From: Chiloscyllium plagiosum
Lineage: Eukaryota
DNA: 64,000 nt
Direction of reading: 5' to 3'
NCBI RefSeq assembly: GCF_004010195.1
Contig: NC_057719.1
Coordinates: 26,936,418-27,000,417 of the forward strand
Shown in pieces: positions 5,170 through 15,490 of this stretch; position 1 is the stretch's first letter; every line of letters begins with the position of its first letter. The notes beneath the pieces were generated by a model. It was not told the DNA's origin. It saw only the letters and a program-made list of their open reading frames with translations, and searched no databases. A program made the translations under genes and the position numbers.

Positions 5170-5338
5170 AACCAGTCTCTGTGTCCAAGTCATCCCCCTG
5201 CAGGAGCACTGCACTGACACTCACATCACTAATGTCGATAGCCACCTTGAAAGGCTTCATTTAATCCAGTGTGGCTAATACTGGGGCAGTGGTTAACATG
5301 GTTTTTAGGCTGTCAAATGCCTTTTGACAGTCTGCTGT
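5170..5338 (-). mobile_element. Continuation of the same Gypsy element (RT connection and RNase H start), split off by the ERV insertion
   Basis: Removing the provirus and one TSD copy restores KFQWTADCQKAFDSLKTMLTTAPVLATLD*MKPFKVAIDISDVSVSAVLLQ. Confidence 0.9.
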
Positions 5339-5818
5339 TGTGGTGAAAGGGTTAAAATTGTGTCCCAATACATGTGTGAATCTAACCGAAAATGGAAGGT
5401 GTCGCTTAGTCCCGTGTGAATCTTATTACACACCTTCCCGTGTGAATCTTCTTATCTGTATGTGACCAGAATGGAATGTGTTTTTCAGCCTTGCTCTGCT
5501 GTTCACATGAATGTTTAGATCTCGAAAAGAGTATATCAGCTGGAAAAGTCTCCAGTTCGGTAGAGTCTGCTCCGGGGTTGCGTTTAACCGCCGAGCGTGG
5601 GTTGTTGGCAACCGCTCTACGAGAACTGACGGCTCCCAGTTCCGGTAACACGTAGAGTGAGTATAAACCAGACCCGTTGTAAGTACGAGACCTGGTTGTG
5701 GCGACGCTGCGGGGAATAAAACACTTATATTCTAGCAGACTCGCCTCTTGGCTGTTTGTCCTGTGTCAGACTACTTTCCTGCGAGCCTGGTCCTTGACCA
5801 TGAGAATTTTTAAAAACA
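5339..5818 (+). repeat. 5' LTR of the provirus (480 bp)
   Basis: TGTGGTG...AAAACA, with TATAAA at 5662-5667, AATAAA at 5715-5720 and three GTGTGAATCT motifs in U3. Positions 5370-5818 align without gaps to 12951-13399, with about 15 mismatches by manual count. Confidence 0.95.
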
Positions 5819-5821
5819 TTT

Positions 5822-5839
5822 TGGCGTAGTCGGCAGGAT
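5822..5839 (+). promoter_or_regulatory. Primer-binding site complementary to tRNA-Ser
   Basis: TGGCGTAGTCGGCAGGAT lies 3 nt after the LTR end. It is the reverse complement of ATCCTGCCGACTACG-CCA, the 3' end of vertebrate tRNA-Ser. Confidence 0.92.
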
Positions 5840-5874
5840 CAATCGCAATTGAGGAAAGATTTTGATACAGAACA

Positions 5875-7684
5875 ATGTTTTGGAAAAAGGCAAAGAAACC
5901 AGAGGAACAAACTGTGGAGGCCCCGACCGTCCCGGGATGGCATGGACCGGGGCATGGCGTGGCAGTTTGTTTGAGAAATGGTGGGGGGCGACCGGAGAAC
6001 TGGGAGGCCGAGGGCGTAGGAACCCCAGGGTCGCTGCTGTCCACCCTTGAGAGGATCCCAGTCCTGCCGAAGAACCCCTTGCCTGGGGTACAGCGGAGGA
6101 TGTGGGCCTGTGCGGCGGCTTGTAGACAACAGTCAGACAAGCGCCAAAAAGCTGAAGCAGAATTAGCCCTCCTGAAACATGAGCAGGGACTCAGTTCGGG
6201 AGATGCCTCTATGTTGAGGCAGGAAATTATGAAGTTAAAAGCTGAAGTGACAGCATTAACTGAACTAGCAGGACAAACTATTATGTATCTGTCTGCTAAG
6301 AAACGGAAAGAGAAAAGGAAGGTCCCTCGAACCCCGGACCCGGTACAAGTACGGGCGTTTGTAGCCCAGTTAAATAACGGGGATCGGTGGGATATCGATC
6401 ATTGGGATGGGAACATTTGGGGAGACTTAGATGATCAGTACGAAGAGGACCCACCCGTACCCCAAGCTAAACCAGTGGTTAGGAGAAAGCAGGTTCAGAG
6501 ACGTCTCCCAGTGCAACGGGAGGTAATGTTAGATGAGAAAGGAAACCCTATACGGAATGAACAAGGGGAAGCAATTATGCATGAATTACCGCGGGCTCAG
6601 CCTCCCGCAGAATTCTCTGAATTAACGGAAGACTTCACTACCGATGAGGTGCTGTTTATCACCCAGAAAACCCGACGTAATCCTGGGGAGCCGTTAGAGC
6701 TATGGCTAATCCGGCCCCCCGAGGAAGGGGGGCAACAAGTGCAGGTAGACTATCAGGATGCTCCCAAGTTTGGTGGATTAGCAAAGGATGCTGCCATAGA
6801 CCTGGGGTACCGCAACCAAGCCAAGGATATGGTAATAGATCGCAGTATGGGGACCCTATTTGGGATGTAGGCCAGGGCAGTGGCCGAACAGTATCCCTTC
6901 CCGTCCGATTGGCCCCCCTTGGAAGGAACTTGGACAACAATTAAGGAAGGGGTTCAGAGGCTAACCCATTTGTGTGTGCGGGATGCCCTGTTGCTGGGAG
7001 TGCTGGACGAGGTAGATAACACAAATGTTAGTAGACAGACTAGAGACCACCTAGTGAAGACTGCCCCCCCATTATAAACCACTGTTATTAACCATAATGA
7101 TGAGTGGACGGGGAGAAACCCTAGGAGATGCCCGTAGTATGATGAGGGAGATGGGTGGTGTGGGGGATTGGGGACCCACAACCCGTCCTCCTCAGGGGGG
7201 CACGGAGGGGCGTCGCCCTGAGGCTCGGGCAGGGGGAAAAGTAAACCCTAATCAAGGAAGTAACCAAGGCCCCTCACGGCGTGCTTTGTGGCAAGCTTTG
7301 ATACGGGCGCAGGTCCCAGAATCGGAGATTGATGGCCTACCTACACCGGAATTAAAAGACTTATGCAGACGAAAGGGACTAAAGGTGTCCCGGGTAGAGA
7401 CGGAGTCCCGACCCACTATGGAAGACCTAGTGGAATTACTAACACAAAAATGCCAGACACTGGGTCCGGTTGGTAATGAGCCTCGAAGGGGTAGAACTTA
7501 CACTTCCCAGCGGTGGGAATCCTCGGAGGACGAGGAGGAGGAGGAGGTACGGCCTCCCCTCCGAGAGTGTTATAAAGTGGATAGGCGTGGCCGGAAACCT
7601 AGTAAGAAAGGCAAGAACAAAGAAGAGCGAGGCAAACGTCTTTACCCAGTGCTGTCTGGGGAAGATGAATGGGAGGAACAATAG
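5875..7684 (+). pseudogene. gag: Retroviral gag, disrupted
   Basis: ATG 35 nt after the PBS. The 331-aa ORF ends at a premature TAG (6868-6870), continues in the same frame to about 7075, then frameshifts into the 7097-7684 frame. It has a coiled-coil segment and a basic/acidic C-terminus, but no CCHC knuckle and no Gly2. Confidence 0.85.
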
Positions 7685-10600
7685 GAATCGGGCCAAGCCC
7701 CAAGGGTTTGCCCACGAACGAGCCAATGGTCAGCAGACGACATTCGACCTCATGTATCATTGACTATCTATTGGCGCAAATCCCTCCAAACCGTTATGGC
7801 TCTAGTGGACACAGGGGCGGAGGCCACCTTAATCTATGGGACGCCCCATAAGTTTAAAGGAACCCCAGTCACGCTGGTTGGGCTGGGAGGTAATCTGATT
7901 GAAGGAAAAACAGTACAATTGCCCCTAAAGATAGCAACAATGCCCATTAAAACTTATTAAATTATCATTACACCGGTTAGAGAATGGATCCTGGGAATGG
8001 ACAATCTGGCCGGTTTAACACTTCACCTCCAACAAGGGAAGTTTGAATTTGGAATCACAAAAATGGCTTTGCGCTGTAGGACGGTGTTAGTGGGAAAGGT
8101 TAAAATGGACCCCTTCCCCATCCCGATCGCCGATCGCGTAATAAGCCTTAGACAGTATAGGATTCCCGGCGGACATAAAGAAATATCCGCCACAATGAAG
8201 GATTATTTGGAAGCGGGAGTGCTTAGGACATGCACCACGGCGTGGAATAACCCCTTATGGCCCGTACATAAAGCCGATGGGTCATGGCGGATGACGGTAG
8301 ATTATCGGCAACTAAACCGTCACACTCCGGCCTTGACGGCAGCGGTCCCGGATGCCGTCACTATTAGAGGACGAATCCAACATCATCCAGGGGTGTGGTA
8401 CGGAGTAATTGATTTGGCTAATGCCTTCTTCACAATTCCTATTCCCGAAGATAGGCAGGAACAGTTCGCATTCACTTGGGAGGGTAGACAATTCACGTTC
8501 ACGCGATTGCCCCAAGGATATCTGCATAGCCCTACTATCTGCCACCGGATAGTTGCAGAACACTTGGCTGCCTTTAAAGTGCCTGACGAAGTGATGATCT
8601 CGCACTATATTGACGATATGATGATACAGGGGACAAGTCAGAAGCAGGTTCAGGAATTGCTGGACCAACTGGTTCAACATATGCGAGGATATGGGTGGGA
8701 GATCAACCCAGCCAAAATCCAGGGTCCCTCACAAACGGTAAAATTCTTAGGAATCATGTGGAACAAGGGGGAAAGGGAAATCACTGCGAAAGCTAAAAAT
8801 AAGATTCAGGTCTTTGCCGTCCCTCACACCCAGAAGGACGTGCAGCAATTTATTGGGTTATTCGGATTCTGGAGACAGCATATTCCCCATTTAGGACAAA
8901 TTTTAAAACCTTTGTATCAAGTTACGAGGAAAAAGGCAGCGTTCGAATGGACGGAGGTCCAGCAAACTGCATTTGAAATGGCCAAGCAAGCGATACAGCA
9001 AGCTGTATCCTTGGGAAAGATACAGTCAGGACCTGTAGAACTGCAAGTCTCAGCACAGGGGGATTATGCCAATTGGAGCTTATGGCAAAAACAGGAAAGA
9101 ACCCGTAAGCCACTGGGATTTTGGTCCCGAAAATTACCCCCGGCAGGGGAACGGTACACCCCCATTGAGAAACAGTAATTAGCATGCCACTGGGGCTTGG
9201 TGGAAACCGAAGCCCTGACCATTGGACATGAAGTGATCATGAGAACAGCTATCCCTATTCTTCCGTGGGTACTTAGTGACCCCACTACCCACCGAATAGG
9301 AACTGCCCAAGAGAGCAGCATCATTAAATGGAAATGGTATGTGTCGGAGAGAGTGCGGACTGGACAGAAAGGAGTGTCAGTCCTACACGAGCAAGTGGCA
9401 GAGGCCCCTGAGGAAGGGGAAAAACGGTGTGAGGTGATTGAATACAAGGAATCACCCGTTAAGATGGGAAAACGGTATGATGAACTGACCCCGGATGAAC
9501 AAGCCACGGCTTGGTTCGTAGATGGGTCAGCCCAATGGAAAGCGGGACAGCGTAGAGGGAAAGCTGCCGCCTTTAACCCAAAACAAGGCACTACCCTAGA
9601 AGAATTAGGGGAGGGAAAAAGTAGTCAGTGGGCAGAATTAAAAGCAGTGCATATGGTAGTCATGCAAGCAGGGGTCATGGGAGTTTGTTTGTTCTCTGAC
9701 TCGTGGTCAGTGGTTAACGGCATGACACAATGGATGCCAACATGGCAGGCCAATCAGTGGATGATCCAGAATAGGGAAGTATGGGGTAAACAGTTATGGC
9801 AAGATATATGGGAGAAAGCTCAATACCTGGTCATATACATCACCCACGTAGATGCCCATACCTCTCGAAATGATGTGGAAGCTCTACATAACCGATATGT
9901 GGATGGTATCGTCCGAACCATGATGGTGCAAAGGGGCACCTCAGTGGACCTAGCTAGATGGGCACACCTTAAGGCCGGGCACTGGGGAGTGCAAGGAACC
10001 TTGCACTGGGCTCGAGACCGAGGAATAGATCTTATGGTAGATGATGGTAAGACTGCAGTAAACCAGTGTGAGCAGTGACAACATCAGCGGCAGGGAGTGC
10101 CCCAACACATGATGGGACATATCCATCGGGGGGATGGTCCGGGACAGAGCTGGCAAATGGACTTTGTGGGTCCCCTACCCTCCTCACAAGGATGTAACCA
10201 CATATGTACAGCTGTGGACACTATGTCTGGGGTTTTGGTAGCCCATCCCTGTCGTCACAACAATCAACAGGCTACCTTGCGATGTTTAGATTTGATTGAA
10301 CAATTTTATGGATTGCCCATACAGGTCCAGAGTGACAATGGCTCCCATTTCACAGGAAGGGCGGTAAAGCAGTGGTGTCACGATAACCACGTGGAATGGG
10401 TTTATCATGTACCCTATCACCCACAAGCTGCGGGACTTATAGAACGAATGAATGGGCTTCTGAAGTCCTCACTACGAAAAGCAGGAGGTTGCAATGACTT
10501 AACAGGTTGGAAGAAGCAACTAATTCGGGTGGTGAAACAAATTAATAACCGCCCATTAGGAAATGGGGTAACACCCTTGAATAGGATGATACAAGTATGT

Positions 10601-11191
10601 GATACCCCAAAGACTCAGCCTATTAAAATGTGGAAAATCGCTGAGGAAGCTGATATTCCCGTAAGGGCCACGCCGGCTTCGGCTGGACTGGACCTACGAG
10701 CACTAACTGCCCAGACTTTGATCCAACAGAAACCTACGGTGAGTAAGACCGGATTAGGATTGATTTGTCCCCCTGGAACCTATGGGCATATCCTCCCGCG
10801 GTCGGGACTGTCACTAAAGGGGATTGATGTGATGGCAGGCGTAATTGACGCAGACTACCAAGGGGAGTTGGGGGTGATCCTGGTCAACATCACCGCTGAA
10901 CCTTACGTGATACAGAAGGGGGACAGAATAGCGCAATTGGTCATTAAGCCATGTAACCTTACAACGGTGGAAGAGACGGGAGCTCCCGTTACGGTTACTG
11001 AGCGTGGAACGGGGGGATTTGGGTCTACTGACACTAAGGGGGCCAAGGTATGGGTGCGCCAGACGACCGGCCCCCCCAGGCCGGCCGAAATCATAGCACA
11101 GGGGAAGGACAGTCTGGTCACCATTATGTACCCCGGGGACCCGACCTGGGCAAACATCCCGGCGAACCAGTGCTACTTACGTGAGACCTAA
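7685..11191 (+). pseudogene. pol: Retroviral pro-pol (PR-RT-RNaseH-IN-dUTPase) in one frame with three nonsense codons
   Basis: PR LVDTGAE; RT QYRIPGG, WRMTVDYRQLN, IDLANAFF, LPQGY, YIDD; RNase [48 protein letters not shown]. Stops at 7958-7960, 9176-9178 and 10076-10078 are all in the same frame. Confidence 0.95.
10625..11030 (+). other. dUTPase domain within pol, between the IN core and a putative IN C-terminal domain
   Basis: All five trimeric-dUTPase motifs are visible: [25 protein letters not shown] and RGTGGFGST. They are followed in frame by [17 protein letters not shown]. Confidence 0.93.
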
Positions 11192-11240
11192 ATAATGTTG
11201 TAATTGCTATGCACCCGCAGGCTGACCCTCCGCCTTGAAC

Positions 11241-12938
11241 ATGGGGTGGTCATGGGGATTGCGACTCCTATTGGCAATGTTCGCGATCGGATGGCCACTC
11301 CAGGGCATCGGTATCACGGCCTGGACGCTGGTACCGGTCGCCCGCCATGAGGTGCGGTGGGAGGCCAGTAGCCAGCGACGGACGCAGGACAATTTTACAT
11401 GTGAACCCGGTCAGCAGTGCGTTGTTCTGACTCTCACCAGCGACTGTCAATTGTACACGTGTGCACAGTGCTACATGCGCCGGGATGGGGAAAAATATGA
11501 CATATCGTTCATACCGCCTAATTGCACCCTGGTGGTAAATGCCCAAGTCAAGACGTGTTTGTGGGACCAACGCACCCAGACATGCGGGACAACGGGGACT
11601 CATTGGAGCGTCACAGCTCGGGGGGAAGATCTGTGGCTGCGCAATGCCACCAATATTCGGAATCGTCATCGATTCATGTGGTTAATAATGGTACTGCCCT
11701 CGACGAACCCCCCGTCTGAGGCGTTATTAAACCCCACGCGGGGCGGGCCAGCACCGAAGAGGGGTGCCACGGGGGGCGTGCGGTCGCATCGAACACAGTT
11801 GGCCCCTATTATGTCAACTTGTCAACAGATGGCCCGGGCGGTACTGCACACTGATGTCCATTGGCGGGTACAGTTGCCCCTCATACCCGAGTGTCATACC
11901 AAGAGGCGGCGACGAGCGTGGTACAACACCCTGCTGGGAGGCGCAGGAACTGTTATGGGTATCTCGAATGCCATTGACTCTGAGGTAACCCGTACTAAAT
12001 TATCTAACACGGGACAGGCCACCTCACAAGGACTACATACTATTGGAAGGTGGATGCCATCCGTAATGATGACTCAAGGAGAGACAGCTGAAATAATGAT
12101 ACGAACTCTGCAATGGGAACTGGATGTCTGGGGTGCCACTCAGGAACTGTTTGAGAACATTACGGCTCAGTTAAATTGGACTGCCTGTCATATTCAAATG
12201 TTGCATGCTCAAATACAGAAAGAACGCTTTTTGCGTGTGGTAACATCCCCCAATGTACAAGCGTGGAGGGGAATATGGAATGTATCTGAGAAATTGTGGA
12301 TGATAACCCATCCAGAACGAACATGGTGTAACGCAACTATGTGTAACGGATACTTTGTTACCATGAATGTAACCCACACTGTTACGGTCTGTCGATATTA
12401 TGTATTACCAGTGATTACATCTTCTGGATATTATTTTCTGAAGACAAGGGGACAGTGGTTTAGCCCAGATACCAATATTACCTATGATCTGTCCGCTTGT
12501 GAACAGACTGATCAGGGGAAAACTTGCCTACTGATGGACAGGTATCGGGACCCTTGCTTGACCAAGGGAACGGCCCTGTGCGAATGGACTGTTGAGACTC
12601 CAAGGGACATGATGTGGCAGATTGGGCCACACACGCTCTGTGTGGCTACCAATAATCCACATCCTATGCTTCCCTCAGCACCGTTCTCGGGATGCCTCTC
12701 AAATGTCTATCAGTGGCACTGGCAGAATCACACCTATTTGTGGACCACTTATAGCAGTGCTCGCCACTTTACCAAGGTGCAGTGGAAAGTGCTGAGGAAT
12801 CCCTGGAACATTTCCCTGGATCAGTTTAAGCGAGCATTGGACCGATCCGAGGAGCTTAAGCAGATATTACGAAAGCATCAAACCAACCCGTGTGAATCTT
12901 CTTATCTGTTTGTAACCAGAATGGAATGTGTTTTTTAG
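11241..12938 (+). CDS. env: Retroviral env, open frame but C-terminally truncated (no TM anchor) and fused to LTR-derived codons
   Basis: Candidate acceptor ccgcag ends at 11220 and the ATG is at 11241. Signal peptide MGWSWGLRLLLAMFAIGW; furin site KRRRR at 11901-11915; Gly-rich hydrophobic peptide AWYNTLLGGAGTVMGISNA; many NxT/S sites. Codons after about 12887 come from LTR sequence. Confidence 0.88.
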   Translation: MGWSWGLRLLLAMFAIGWPLQGIGITAWTLVPVARHEVRWEASSQRRTQDNFTCEPGQQCVVLTLTSDCQLYTCAQCYMRRDGEKYDISFIPPNCTLVVNAQVKTCLWDQRTQTCGTTGTHWSVTARGEDLWLRNATNIRNRHRFMWLIMVLPSTNPPSEALLNPTRGGPAPKRGATGGVRSHRTQLAPIMSTCQQMARAVLHTDVHWRVQLPLIPECHTKRRRRAWYNTLLGGAGTVMGISNAIDSEVTRTKLSNTGQATSQGLHTIGRWMPSVMMTQGETAEIMIRTLQWELDVWGATQELFENITAQLNWTACHIQMLHAQIQKERFLRVVTSPNVQAWRGIWNVSEKLWMITHPERTWCNATMCNGYFVTMNVTHTVTVCRYYVLPVITSSGYYFLKTRGQWFSPDTNITYDLSACEQTDQGKTCLLMDRYRDPCLTKGTALCEWTVETPRDMMWQIGPHTLCVATNNPHPMLPSAPFSGCLSNVYQWHWQNHTYLWTTYSSARHFTKVQWKVLRNPWNISLDQFKRALDRSEELKQILRKHQTNPCESSYLFVTRMECVF

Positions 12939-13399
12939 CCTTGCTCTGCTACATGTGTGAATCTAACCGAAAATGGAAGGTGTCGCTTAGTCTCGTGTGA
13001 ATCTTGTTATACACCTTCCCGTGTGAATCTTCTTATCTGCATGTGACCAGAATGGACTGTGTTTTTCAGCTTTGCTCTGCTGTTCACATGAATGTTTATA
13101 TCTGGAAAAGGGTATATCAGCTGGGGAAGTCTCCAGTTCGGTAGAGTCTGCTCCGGGGTTGCGTTTAACCGCCGAGCGTGGGTTGTTGGCAACCGCTCTA
13201 CGAGAACTGACGGCTCCCAGTTCCGGTAACACGTAGAGTGAGTATAAACCAGACCCGTTGTAAGTACGAGACCTAGTTGTGGCGACGCTGCGGGGAATAA
13301 AACACTTATATTCTAGCAGACTCGCCTCTTGGCTGTTTGTTCTGTGTCAGACTACTTTCCTGCGAGCCTGGTCCTTGACCTTGAGAATTTTTTAAAACA
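12887..13399 (+). repeat. 3' LTR, 5'-truncated, with an extra partial U3 repeat unit
   Basis: 12887-12950 matches 5437-5500, then 12951-13399 matches 5370-5818. The LTR start (5339-5369) and a PPT are absent. TATAAA is at 13243-13248 and AATAAA at 13296-13301. Confidence 0.93.
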
Positions 13400-15490
13400 G
13401 CTGTCCACTGAAACTTGTTGCCCTTTTTTACAATTCGGTGAGTGGAGCAGCCACACTGCTAAAGTTTGGCACAAACTTTCGGTAAAATCCACTCAACCCC
13501 AGGAACCATAGTACTGATTTTTTCATTAATAGTGTGGGAAATTCCCCAGTTACTTTCACTTTTGCGCCTTGTGGTGCCATTTGTCCATGTCCAATAACAT
13601 GGCCCAGGAAGGTGAATTGGGCTTTGGCAAAGTCACTTTTAGCCATGTTTACCACCAAGCCTGCCTTCCGAAGTCGATCGGACAAGTCCGATAAGTGGGT
13701 AAATGTTCCTTCCATGAGTGACTAAAAATCACCAGGTCATCAATGTACACCACACAATTGGGTAATCTGGTAATGACCTTATTCGTCAGTCTCTGAAATG
13801 TGGCTGAAGTGTTTTTCATACCAAATTCATGACTTTGAACTGATGTAGTCCATTTGGCATTACAAAAGCCAAAATTGCCTTTGCTCTCTCTGACAGAAGT
13901 ACTTGCCAATAGCCTCTGAGCAAGTCCAACTTAGAAATGTAAGTTGCTTGTCCTACTTTTTCGACACAGCCCTCCAATTGTGGAGTTGGATATGCATCAG
14001 TCTTTGTAACGGCATTGTCTTTGCGAGAGTCCACACATAACCGTTGGGTACCACTGGCTTTGGCACCATGACTATGGGTGAGCTCCAGTCACTGTAACTC
14101 ACTTTGATTATGCCATCTTGGAGCATGCACTCTAACTCCTTCTGAACCTGTGCCAACTTTAGAGGGTTTGCCTATAAGGACATTGCTTAATCAGAACAAC
14201 ATCTCCTATATCTACATTATACACAATTAGGTTAGTACTTGCCAGTTTATTTCTGCATATCTCTCCATGTGATAGTTAAAACTCTTTCAGGTCATTTCGG
14301 TTTTCTTTGGGAAGGTAACTCAATAATTTATACCAATTGTTGACAACTTCCTCATTGTCCAATCTGATTTGAGGAATGTCCAATTCAGAATGCTCTGAAC
14401 TTGGTTCTTCCTCCTGTGTTTAATCATTAACACCATCTCCTCTTGCTTTCCTTCCCTATCAAAATACCTTTGAGCATATTCACATGACACACTCTGTGAG
14501 ATTTCTTCCTGTCTGGAGTCCTTATCAAGTAGTTCACCTCACTCAATTTCCTCTCAATTTGATATGCTCCACTAAACCTGGCTTTTAAAGGCTCACTTGT
14601 TACTGGAAGCAGCACCAGTACCTTATCCCCAATTGCAAAATTGCGAATTTGTGATTTCTTATCCGCTTCCTAGTTCATTGTATGCTGTGATACTTTTAAA
14701 TGCTGTCTAGCCAACTCTTCAATTCTATTTAATCATTCTCTAAATTTTGACACACAGTCCAGATGGGTGGTCTCTGAATTCTGAGTTATTCATTTCTCCT
14801 TAATCAATTTTAACAGTCCTCTTACTTCATGCCCAAAAATTAATTCACATGGACTGAATTTGGTCAATTCATTCGGTGCATTCCTACTCACAAAAAGTAC
14901 AAAGGGAATTCCCTTATCCCAATCATCTGGATAATCCTGACCATAAGCCCTCAATATAGTCTTTAGTGTTTGATGCTATCTCTCTCGTGCTCCCTGTGAT
15001 TCTGGATGGATTTGAACTGCTTTATTGCCAAGTTATGCAAAACCTCCTTGAATAGATTGAATGTGAAGTTTGATCCTTAATCTGACTGGATCTCTATTGG
15101 TAGTCTGTATCTAGTAAAAAATGAAACAAATTCTTCTACAACCCTTTTTTGCTGTGATGTTGCATAATGGGATTGCCTCTGGAAACCTTGTTGACACATC
15201 CATTATTGTTTGAGGTAGGGGAACCACACAATCAATCAAGACTCTTGTGAAAGGTTCCTCAAAAGCTAGAATAGGTATTAAAGGTGCAGGTTTTATTACG
15301 CCTGTGGTTTTCTGATTAGCTGACATGTATGACATGTCCGGCAAATTCAACTACATCCTTGTGTAGTCCATGCCAGTAAAAATGTCTTTGTATTTTAGCC
15401 TGTGTTTTCCTCACCCCTAAATGACCTCCAAGTGGTAGCTCATGCCCCACTCACAGCACCTCCTTTCTATACCTTACTGGCAAAACAATT

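Follow-up and report, generated by a model that had tools for sequence, protein, structure and literature searches.

Retroviral envelopes are usually sorted as gamma-type or beta-type. Which kind of envelope an ERV-L-related retrovirus carried is the question raised by a provirus in a 64,000-nucleotide stretch of Chiloscyllium plagiosum DNA (the window; NC_057719.1, positions 26,936,418 to 27,000,417), where it spans positions 5339-13399 and is flanked on both sides by the letters GCTGT. An earlier note, made from the letters alone, had described a near-complete class III element that might represent a recently infectious virus, with a union of a primer-binding site (PBS) for serine tRNA, a dUTPase and an envelope gene (env) that was thought to be new. 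Our analysis indicates that the element is very probably a dead class III provirus whose env lacks gamma-type motifs and encodes a predicted class Ib fusogen with the fold of viral fusion (F) proteins and foamy virus Env. The layout was already known. For the pairing of a predicted F-like env with an ERV-L-type pol, a search made outside Repbase, Dfam and supplements found no published description, whether in ERV-L/ERV3 elements or in chicken Ovex1.

The envelope and its predicted fold

All features of the provirus lie on the plus strand. The env opens with a hydrophobic N-terminus, predicted to be a signal peptide, and a cysteine-rich N-terminal domain (11241..11783; outer-domain type A), followed by the putative F-like core (11784..12886), in which a long strand, a furin site, a fusion peptide, a long helix and cysteine-rich beta domains were recognized. 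The furin site, RRRR at 11904-11915, precedes a glycine-rich fusion peptide and a long heptad helix. The N-terminal domain, which was beta-rich in the model of the relative P0002, is likely to be receptor-binding. The earlier note was right that an env is present, and missed that it is incomplete: family homology stops at 12886, upstream of the membrane anchor, and sister copies with simple ends have 288 further bases before the 3′ long terminal repeat (LTR), including the anchor missing here. This copy has lost the last ~80 env codons with the anchor, the purine tract and 30 nt at the start of the 3′ LTR; at a rearranged junction (12887..12949), a 64-nt duplicate of U3 occupies their place.

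No Pfam family scored above the cut-off for the window env. Neither hallmark of the gamma-type transmembrane subunit (TM) of XtERV-S, the immunosuppressive domain (ISD) and CX6CC, was found in this truncated env or in its full-length shark relatives, and HHalign comparison of the env family profile with a gamma-type fish env gave a probability of 6%. CX6CC-like strings occurred in 11 of 78 long family members; we rejected them as gamma motifs because none was accompanied by an ISD-like motif and because those of P0138 and P0216, the two examined, were located at the anchor end or in a beta domain.

The AlphaFold model of the window env core (11784-12878, 365 aa) had a predicted local distance difference test score (pLDDT) of 78. 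When this model was searched against the PDB with Foldseek, all 40 listed rows were F proteins or foamy Env (best E 5.9e-7), with template-modeling (TM) scores of 0.40-0.45 for the top rows. A Foldseek-independent search of 48,161 chains ranked Newcastle disease virus F first (Z 8.3, 298 aligned residues, root-mean-square deviation [rmsd] 10.2), followed by foamy Env (Z 7.2, 263 residues); 11 of the 50 rows aligned over more than 200 residues, all of them F or foamy Env, and the other 39 were short helical matches of at most 91. The AlphaFold model of the full-length shark relative P0002 agreed, with F or foamy Env in 42 of 42 listed Foldseek rows. Against predicted viral structures, P0002 also matched baculovirus F, mumps F and the walleye epsilonretrovirus Envs Q9WHI8 and A4GTG3 (WEHV1 and WDSV; E 2e-8 and 1e-6); the top BFVD match was A0A384ZVF2, of 928 aa. 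In the ESM Atlas, the top three clusters (scores 0.91-0.93) carried PF00523 Fusion_gly in 83%, 33% and 26% of their members.

The order of the parts is also that of F: long strand, furin site, fusion peptide, long helix, beta domains, second helix and anchor. The intertwined core of F domains I-III, with the long strand of the N-terminal subunit, was recovered on predicted models only (Z up to 8.3), and the F-like alignments covered 210-298 residues, the modeled range beginning upstream of the cleavage site. For foamy Env itself, superposition of the core on F domains I-III is described with 147 C-alpha atoms at 3.6 Å (PMC11468914). These models predict that the env is a class Ib fusogen folded like foamy Env and paramyxo-/pneumovirus F. 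Middling Z values and high rmsd are expected when a refolding trimer is modeled as a monomer, and the fold is therefore given as a prediction. As a separate observation, the walleye matches suggest that the class I viruses WEHV1 and WDSV may have an F-like env too.

The three best env relatives were shark proteins, the nearest being 95% identical over the fusion core, and the ten direct relatives comprised three sharks, two pipefishes, medaka, koala, sugar glider and two further records. A profile search extended the family to 185 clusters at 50% identity; the 20 looked up included toadfish, bichir, horn shark, several frogs, turtle, birds, marmoset and chicken LOC422926 (P0202), which is the 873-aa Ovex1 ORF3 and was matched at E 5.6e-17 by a profile made without it. 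An HHalign comparison of the family profile with Ovex1 ORF3 was discounted as circular, the profile having contained P0202. Judged by sequence, the family appears to span sharks, bony fish, lungfish, frogs, marsupials, marmoset and chicken Ovex1 ORF3. No envelope Pfam family was found in any of 29 env relatives, and screens with gamma- or beta-type queries would therefore miss this env family. One such anamniote screen used gamma- and beta-type queries only, as described in bioRxiv 2021.11.23.469661, and the available part of a primate env screen (PMC13461226) mentions unclassified env open reading frames (ORFs) and does not name this family. No named viral F protein was present among the 20 clusters looked up.

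This env could be tied directly to a pol only in the C. plagiosum genome (G000) and in P0003, P0034 and P0256, three proteins predicted to be fusions. P0034, a lungfish predicted protein, joins the env to a Pol that falls beside XtERV-S-/ERV-L-like rows, and in P0256 an Ovex1-like env is fused with RNase H and integrase; the link of the family to other pols is thin. Ovex1 ORF3 is conserved at 873 aa across galliforms; as a member of this env family, it is likely to be F-like too. Long open-frame members were also found in koala, sugar glider and marmoset (P0009, P0010 and P0142; the C-terminus is common to the first two hosts), and these could be co-opted genes or young proviruses.

A dead class III provirus

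The provirus is bounded by 5-bp target-site duplications (TSDs) at 5334..5338 and 13400..13404, a length listed as an ERV3-type feature in Table 1 of PMC4299795. The 5′ LTR (5339..5818, 480 bp) has TGT...ACA ends, TATAAA at 5662 and AATAAA at 5715, and the 3′ LTR (12950..13399), short of its first 30 nt, equals it at 435 of 450 positions. The PBS (5822..5839) is complementary to tRNA-Ser(AGA): a pattern derived from it matched the genome three times, and ARAGORN called a tRNA-Ser(aga) at all three sites. Only 35 nt separate the PBS from the gag ATG at 5875, a very short leader. In one single-cell RNA run, poly(A) tails began on family LTR reads at 5732-5737, 17-22 bases past AATAAA; depth over the gene region in that run was below 2, and its reads were not assignable to this locus. 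The insertion target is a degenerate element with reverse transcriptase (RT) remains, likely Ty3/gypsy (13428-14088, minus strand; Pfam RVT_1 fragments). Apparent empty-site joints in runs X15 and X14 were rejected as an insertion polymorphism because the flank itself belongs to this repeated RT-bearing element.

The gag gene (5875..7684) has no CCHC knuckle in either of the two open stretches scanned, and its N-terminal part is 73% identical to the shark protein P0003 and 24-27% identical to amphibian and ray relatives. The pro-pol region (7685..11191) continues in the frame of the gag 3′ end and encodes, in order, protease (motif DTG at 7808), RT (YIDD at 8606), tether, RNase H, integrase (IN) and dUTPase. 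Pfam recovered RT (E 2.5e-28), RNase H, the integrase core and then dUTPase (10646..11029; PF00692, E 8e-34, residues 190-317 of ORF 10079), the protease match remaining under the cut-off. The position of the dUTPase is colinear with the MuERV-L-like Pol P0030, and no GPY/GPF motif follows the integrase in the ORF 10079 translation. The TSD, serine PBS, short leader, knuckle-free Gag and dUTPase after IN reported by the earlier note were thus all confirmed, as were its four quoted pol motifs (at 7745, 8153, 8285 and 9179).

Its count of four nonsense codons and one gag frameshift, here placed near 7058-7075, was also correct. The stop at 6868 in gag and the in-frame stops at 7958, 9176 and 10076 in pol are damage, other copies having sense codons at these positions (4/4, 5/5, 10/11 and 11/11, respectively). 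In contrast, the TAG at 7682 is a stop in 5/5 other covering copies and the TAA at 11189 in 9/9, and these are therefore the natural ends of gag and pol. The gag TAG is in frame with pol, so the element does not have the foamy-type arrangement of a separate pol in another frame with its own start. This copy is incapable of making Gag-Pol or an anchored Env and is a dead provirus.

Class placement was examined with RT. The RT-stretch search gave 120 long proteins; rows were chosen by hand from these and from 115 hits on the class I side, with redundant bird and fish rows omitted, to give a 59-row tree. Both RT trees were quick searches with Shimodaira-Hasegawa-like approximate likelihood ratio test (SH-aLRT) support and included no foamy, snakehead retrovirus (SnRV), HERV-S or lokiretrovirus references. 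The window RT fell within a 16-row clade (SH-aLRT 98) of Pols from killifish, frogs, caecilians, newt, lungfish and owl, most of them dUTPase-bearing. The sister of this clade was a group containing the mouse MuERV-L-like P0030, the Xenopus XtERV-S-like P0040 and a chicken ERV-L-like Pol (support 97); the window RT was 53% identical to P0030 and 51% to P0040. We inferred the MuERV-L and XtERV-S labels by considering the host, the members of each cluster and the motif table in PMC8278194.

Grouping on the ERV-L side had support of 97 and 95 in the two trees, class I rows formed a separate clade in the 59-row tree, and forcing the window RT into class I was rejected in a 26-row tree (approximately unbiased [AU] test, p=0.012). 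In trees that hold no lokiretrovirus row, the RT was nested beside ERV-L-like Pols and not sister to all other retroviruses, as lokiretroviral RT is. A phmmer search of the RT against the PDB was set aside as a class test, for it did not discriminate (murine leukemia virus-type E 1e-50, foamy E 2e-43). A scan of viral contigs for named retroviral references yielded one locus from 64 candidates, an epsilon-like fish virus that served as class I and gamma-env control. The RT grouping supports placement of the provirus in class III (ERV3, ERV-L-related), where the earlier note had put it, and the phylogenetic check that the note proposed gave no grouping with class I.

Copies, selection and age

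An env search of the genome returned 24 matches, 23 of them at 93-100% identity; an RT search returned 11, of which seven were nearly full length, and a search with an LTR piece gave 1,381 candidates, 40 of which were scored. Deletions or tandem U3 repeats affect many of the copies. Outer-domain type A, that of the window, was present in 10 sequences. A second type is 60% identical to type A over 386 aligned bases, lacks a signal peptide in 4/4 matches, and differs among its copies by 1-4 of 404 bases.

Variants were counted column by column among the copies in the genome. The ratio of non-synonymous to synonymous change (dN/dS) was 0.17 for shared variants in pol (107 synonymous, 46 non-synonymous), 0.22 for those in the env core (36/21, p 2e-8) and 0.41 for singletons of the type-A env core (p 6e-5); the outer domain looked neutral. 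Elements that spread by reinfection are usually recognized by purifying selection on their env. Selection on the env core, taken with the two exchanged outer domains, fits an infectious spread that took place some millions to tens of millions of years ago.

The LTR pair differs at 15 of 450 sites (Kimura two-parameter distance 0.034). Eleven of the 15 differences lie in the first 192 bases, adjoining the rearranged junction (Fisher p 0.017), and divergence over the remainder is 1.5%. The corresponding age is ~3.5-8 million years (My) at a mammalian rate of 2.2e-9 per site per year, or 35-77 My at 2.2e-10, the shark rate assumed in PMC4422223. Sequencing runs under three organism labels contained 69-77% of env words (17/24 rows), and no RNA runs containing env words were listed. 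Of the suggestion that the virus was recently infectious, the infectious part agrees with purifying selection on the env core among copies; recency is unsupported, the LTRs being 1.5-3.4% apart and the copy dead.

In the ancestral virus, tRNA-Ser would have been the primer for reverse transcription, read-through of the gag TAG would have yielded Gag-Pol, and Env would have come from a spliced RNA. Furin cleavage of Env would release the fusion peptide, and, by analogy with F, the long helix and a C-terminal heptad would refold into a hairpin trimer. The small N-terminal domain was likely receptor-binding and may have been exchanged between co-circulating lineages. The virus probably entered the germ line by infection more than once, and deleted derivatives and many LTRs would then have been left.

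Several derivative forms were observed among the copies. In L006-L009 (homologous to window 11140-11784), a sublineage of the second type, the pol end is joined to env and the copies are at least 99% alike there; pol is under strong purifying selection, suggestive of spread that was intracellular or was helped in trans. In L004:2937-8592, a 131-bp U3 unit is repeated in tandem ~40 times upstream of an env fragment, and shorter U3 arrays occur in L001, L006, L010 and L011. In the deleted copy L005, pieces of gag, pol and env are merged into a single open frame of 1,332 codons; a gag-env fusion is annotated in basking shark (P0003). L019, L024, L025 and L027 are short non-autonomous derivatives with an LTR, the primer site and the gag start, followed in several of them by a simple repeat of 5-bp units and a second LTR.

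Origin of the envelope and comparison with known retroviruses

Some observations weigh against reading the element as a class III provirus with an F-like env. The fold match is middling (TM-score 0.25-0.45, high rmsd, 7-14% identity, a Z that may be generic), PDB sequence and profile searches with the env and its profile returned nothing below E 0.5, and the ESM Atlas recognition value, 1518, lies under the level at which scores are strong evidence. The RT trees are quick ones with the reference gaps and inferred labels given above. The purifying signal in env arises mainly between lineages (within type A, shared variants gave 0.63; 9/15, p 0.19), and some copies are on short unplaced contigs and may be duplicates. 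A structural artefact, in which a long helix plus beta strands attracted the match and the env is an unrelated fusogen, would account for Z values of 8.3 or less, rmsd of 5-24, coiled coils at the lower ranks and the lack of a sequence-level F match. We consider it quite improbable, since the matches include the beta domains and the pre-cleavage long strand in F order, and two models and a language-model search were concordant. It is also unlikely, if a little less so, that the element is a recently infectious shark class III virus, novel through the union of serine PBS, dUTPase and env. All three traits are indeed present, sister copies are 93-100% identical, and the runs under three organism labels hold most env words; against this stand the divergence of the LTRs, the five gag-pol breaks and truncated env of this copy, and the prior description of the same combination in XtERV-S (PMC8278194), with dUTPase and env together also reported for CrocERV41 (PMC4299795).

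If the env is F-like, its origin can be read in two ways. The F-like fusogen could be the native ancestral ERV-L/ERV3 envelope, the "missing" env of ERV-L, a proposal that we make tentatively and as somewhat less than probable. Its survivors would then range from the envs of sharks to those of marsupials and marmoset and to chicken Ovex1, and HERV-S, XtERV-S and AnERV6/8 would have gained their gamma- or alpha-type envs later, as replacements. Alternatively, a real F-like env could have been captured late, from a lokiretrovirus, an F-bearing retrotransposon or a negative-strand virus, and be uninformative about the ancestral ERV-L env; this may well be what happened, without our thinking it the probable course. 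Env swapping is described as common in class III (PMC4724089; bioRxiv 2024.07.05.601823), and F-type envs occur also in lokiretroviruses (PMC7947760) and in invertebrate errantiviruses (PMC13524379). The walleye Envs match as well, and the F fold is therefore not tied to one RT class; the few direct env-pol links fit a late capture too. Conversely, the family has both depth and breadth (185 clusters, with hosts that range from sharks to birds and marmoset), it is joined to pols of different lineages (the 16-row clade, lungfish P0034 and the Ovex1 lineage), and no named viral F appeared among the clusters looked up.

An F-like env on an ERV-L-type, dUTPase-bearing backbone would widen the F link past foamy viruses and lokiretroviruses, and the question of the ancestral retroviral envelope becomes testable by RT-env co-phylogeny. 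A fold is also suggested for the unexplained Ovex1 ORF3 and for the long open frames of koala, sugar glider and marmoset. If the ancestral proposal is true, it would, taken with the foamy, lokiretroviral and walleye Envs, make the F fold that of the original envelope of retroviruses, and would draw attention to open-frame F-like env genes that have been overlooked in mammalian and bird genomes.

Among described elements, XtERV-S of Xenopus combines a serine PBS and a 5-bp TSD with a Gag that lacks a zinc finger, an in-frame gag stop, an ERV-L-type pol with YIDD and, after IN, a modeled, degenerate dUTPase, and it also carries an env (PMC8278194). The shark element resembles it in its Ser(AGA/TGA) PBS, TGT...ACA LTRs, TSD length, short leader, Gag without a zinc finger, in-frame gag stop, YIDD RT, dUTPase position, env and many deleted derivatives. 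It differs in a predicted F-like env and a strong-scoring dUTPase, whereas the XtERV-S env is described with a gamma-type TM (CWIC, ISD, CX6CC) and its dUTPase without a Pfam match; the RTs (P0040, label inferred) are ~50% identical and belong to sister subclades. With MuERV-L, HERV-L and CrocERV41 it shares a pol with C-terminal dUTPase, the lack of CCHC and the 5-bp TSD. Mammalian ERV-L elements use a leucine PBS and, unlike the shark element, do not have an env. Crocodilian ERV3 groups have env, one of them (CrocERV41) with dUTPase also; its env, of a type unstated in the relevant part of PMC4299795, could belong to the shark family. HERV-S shares the serine PBS, class III pol and an env but, by description only, has no dUTPase and a class I (PRIMA41-like) env (PMC4724089).

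Other class III envs of stated type in the literature consulted are gamma- or alpha-like: in the frog elements AnERV6 and AnERV8, alpha- and gamma-type envs accompany an ERV-L pol and dUTPase (bioRxiv 2024.07.05.601823), and the env of ERV-S.1-Dbi is alpha-like gamma-type (bioRxiv 2024.03.17.585361). In the 2016 survey of PMC4724089, a non-extensive search clustered all class III envs with class I and left the original HERVL env unidentified. Clade III accounts for the majority of cartilaginous-fish ERV RTs according to PMC11089739, and CmiERV lineage I of elephant shark (PMC4422223) is likewise a non-class-I cartilaginous-fish ERV with env, which groups with snakehead retrovirus. Ovex1 ORF3 is homologous to the shark env and has the same fusion-peptide and C-terminal HHWW motifs; in contrast to the shark element, Ovex1 is a single-copy conserved locus, encoding the 873-aa protein, of another pol lineage described without dUTPase (PMC2717909). 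Lokiretroviruses (PMC7947760) and foamy viruses (PMC11468914) also have a retroviral env related to paramyxo-/pneumovirus F. However, the lokiretroviral RT is reported as sister to all other retroviruses and its env matches PF00523 by sequence, and foamy Env, at ~980 aa, has a large inserted receptor-binding domain and two membrane segments, whereas the shark element combines an ERV-L-type RT with an env whose relatives are ~630 aa long, with a small N-terminal domain and one anchor.

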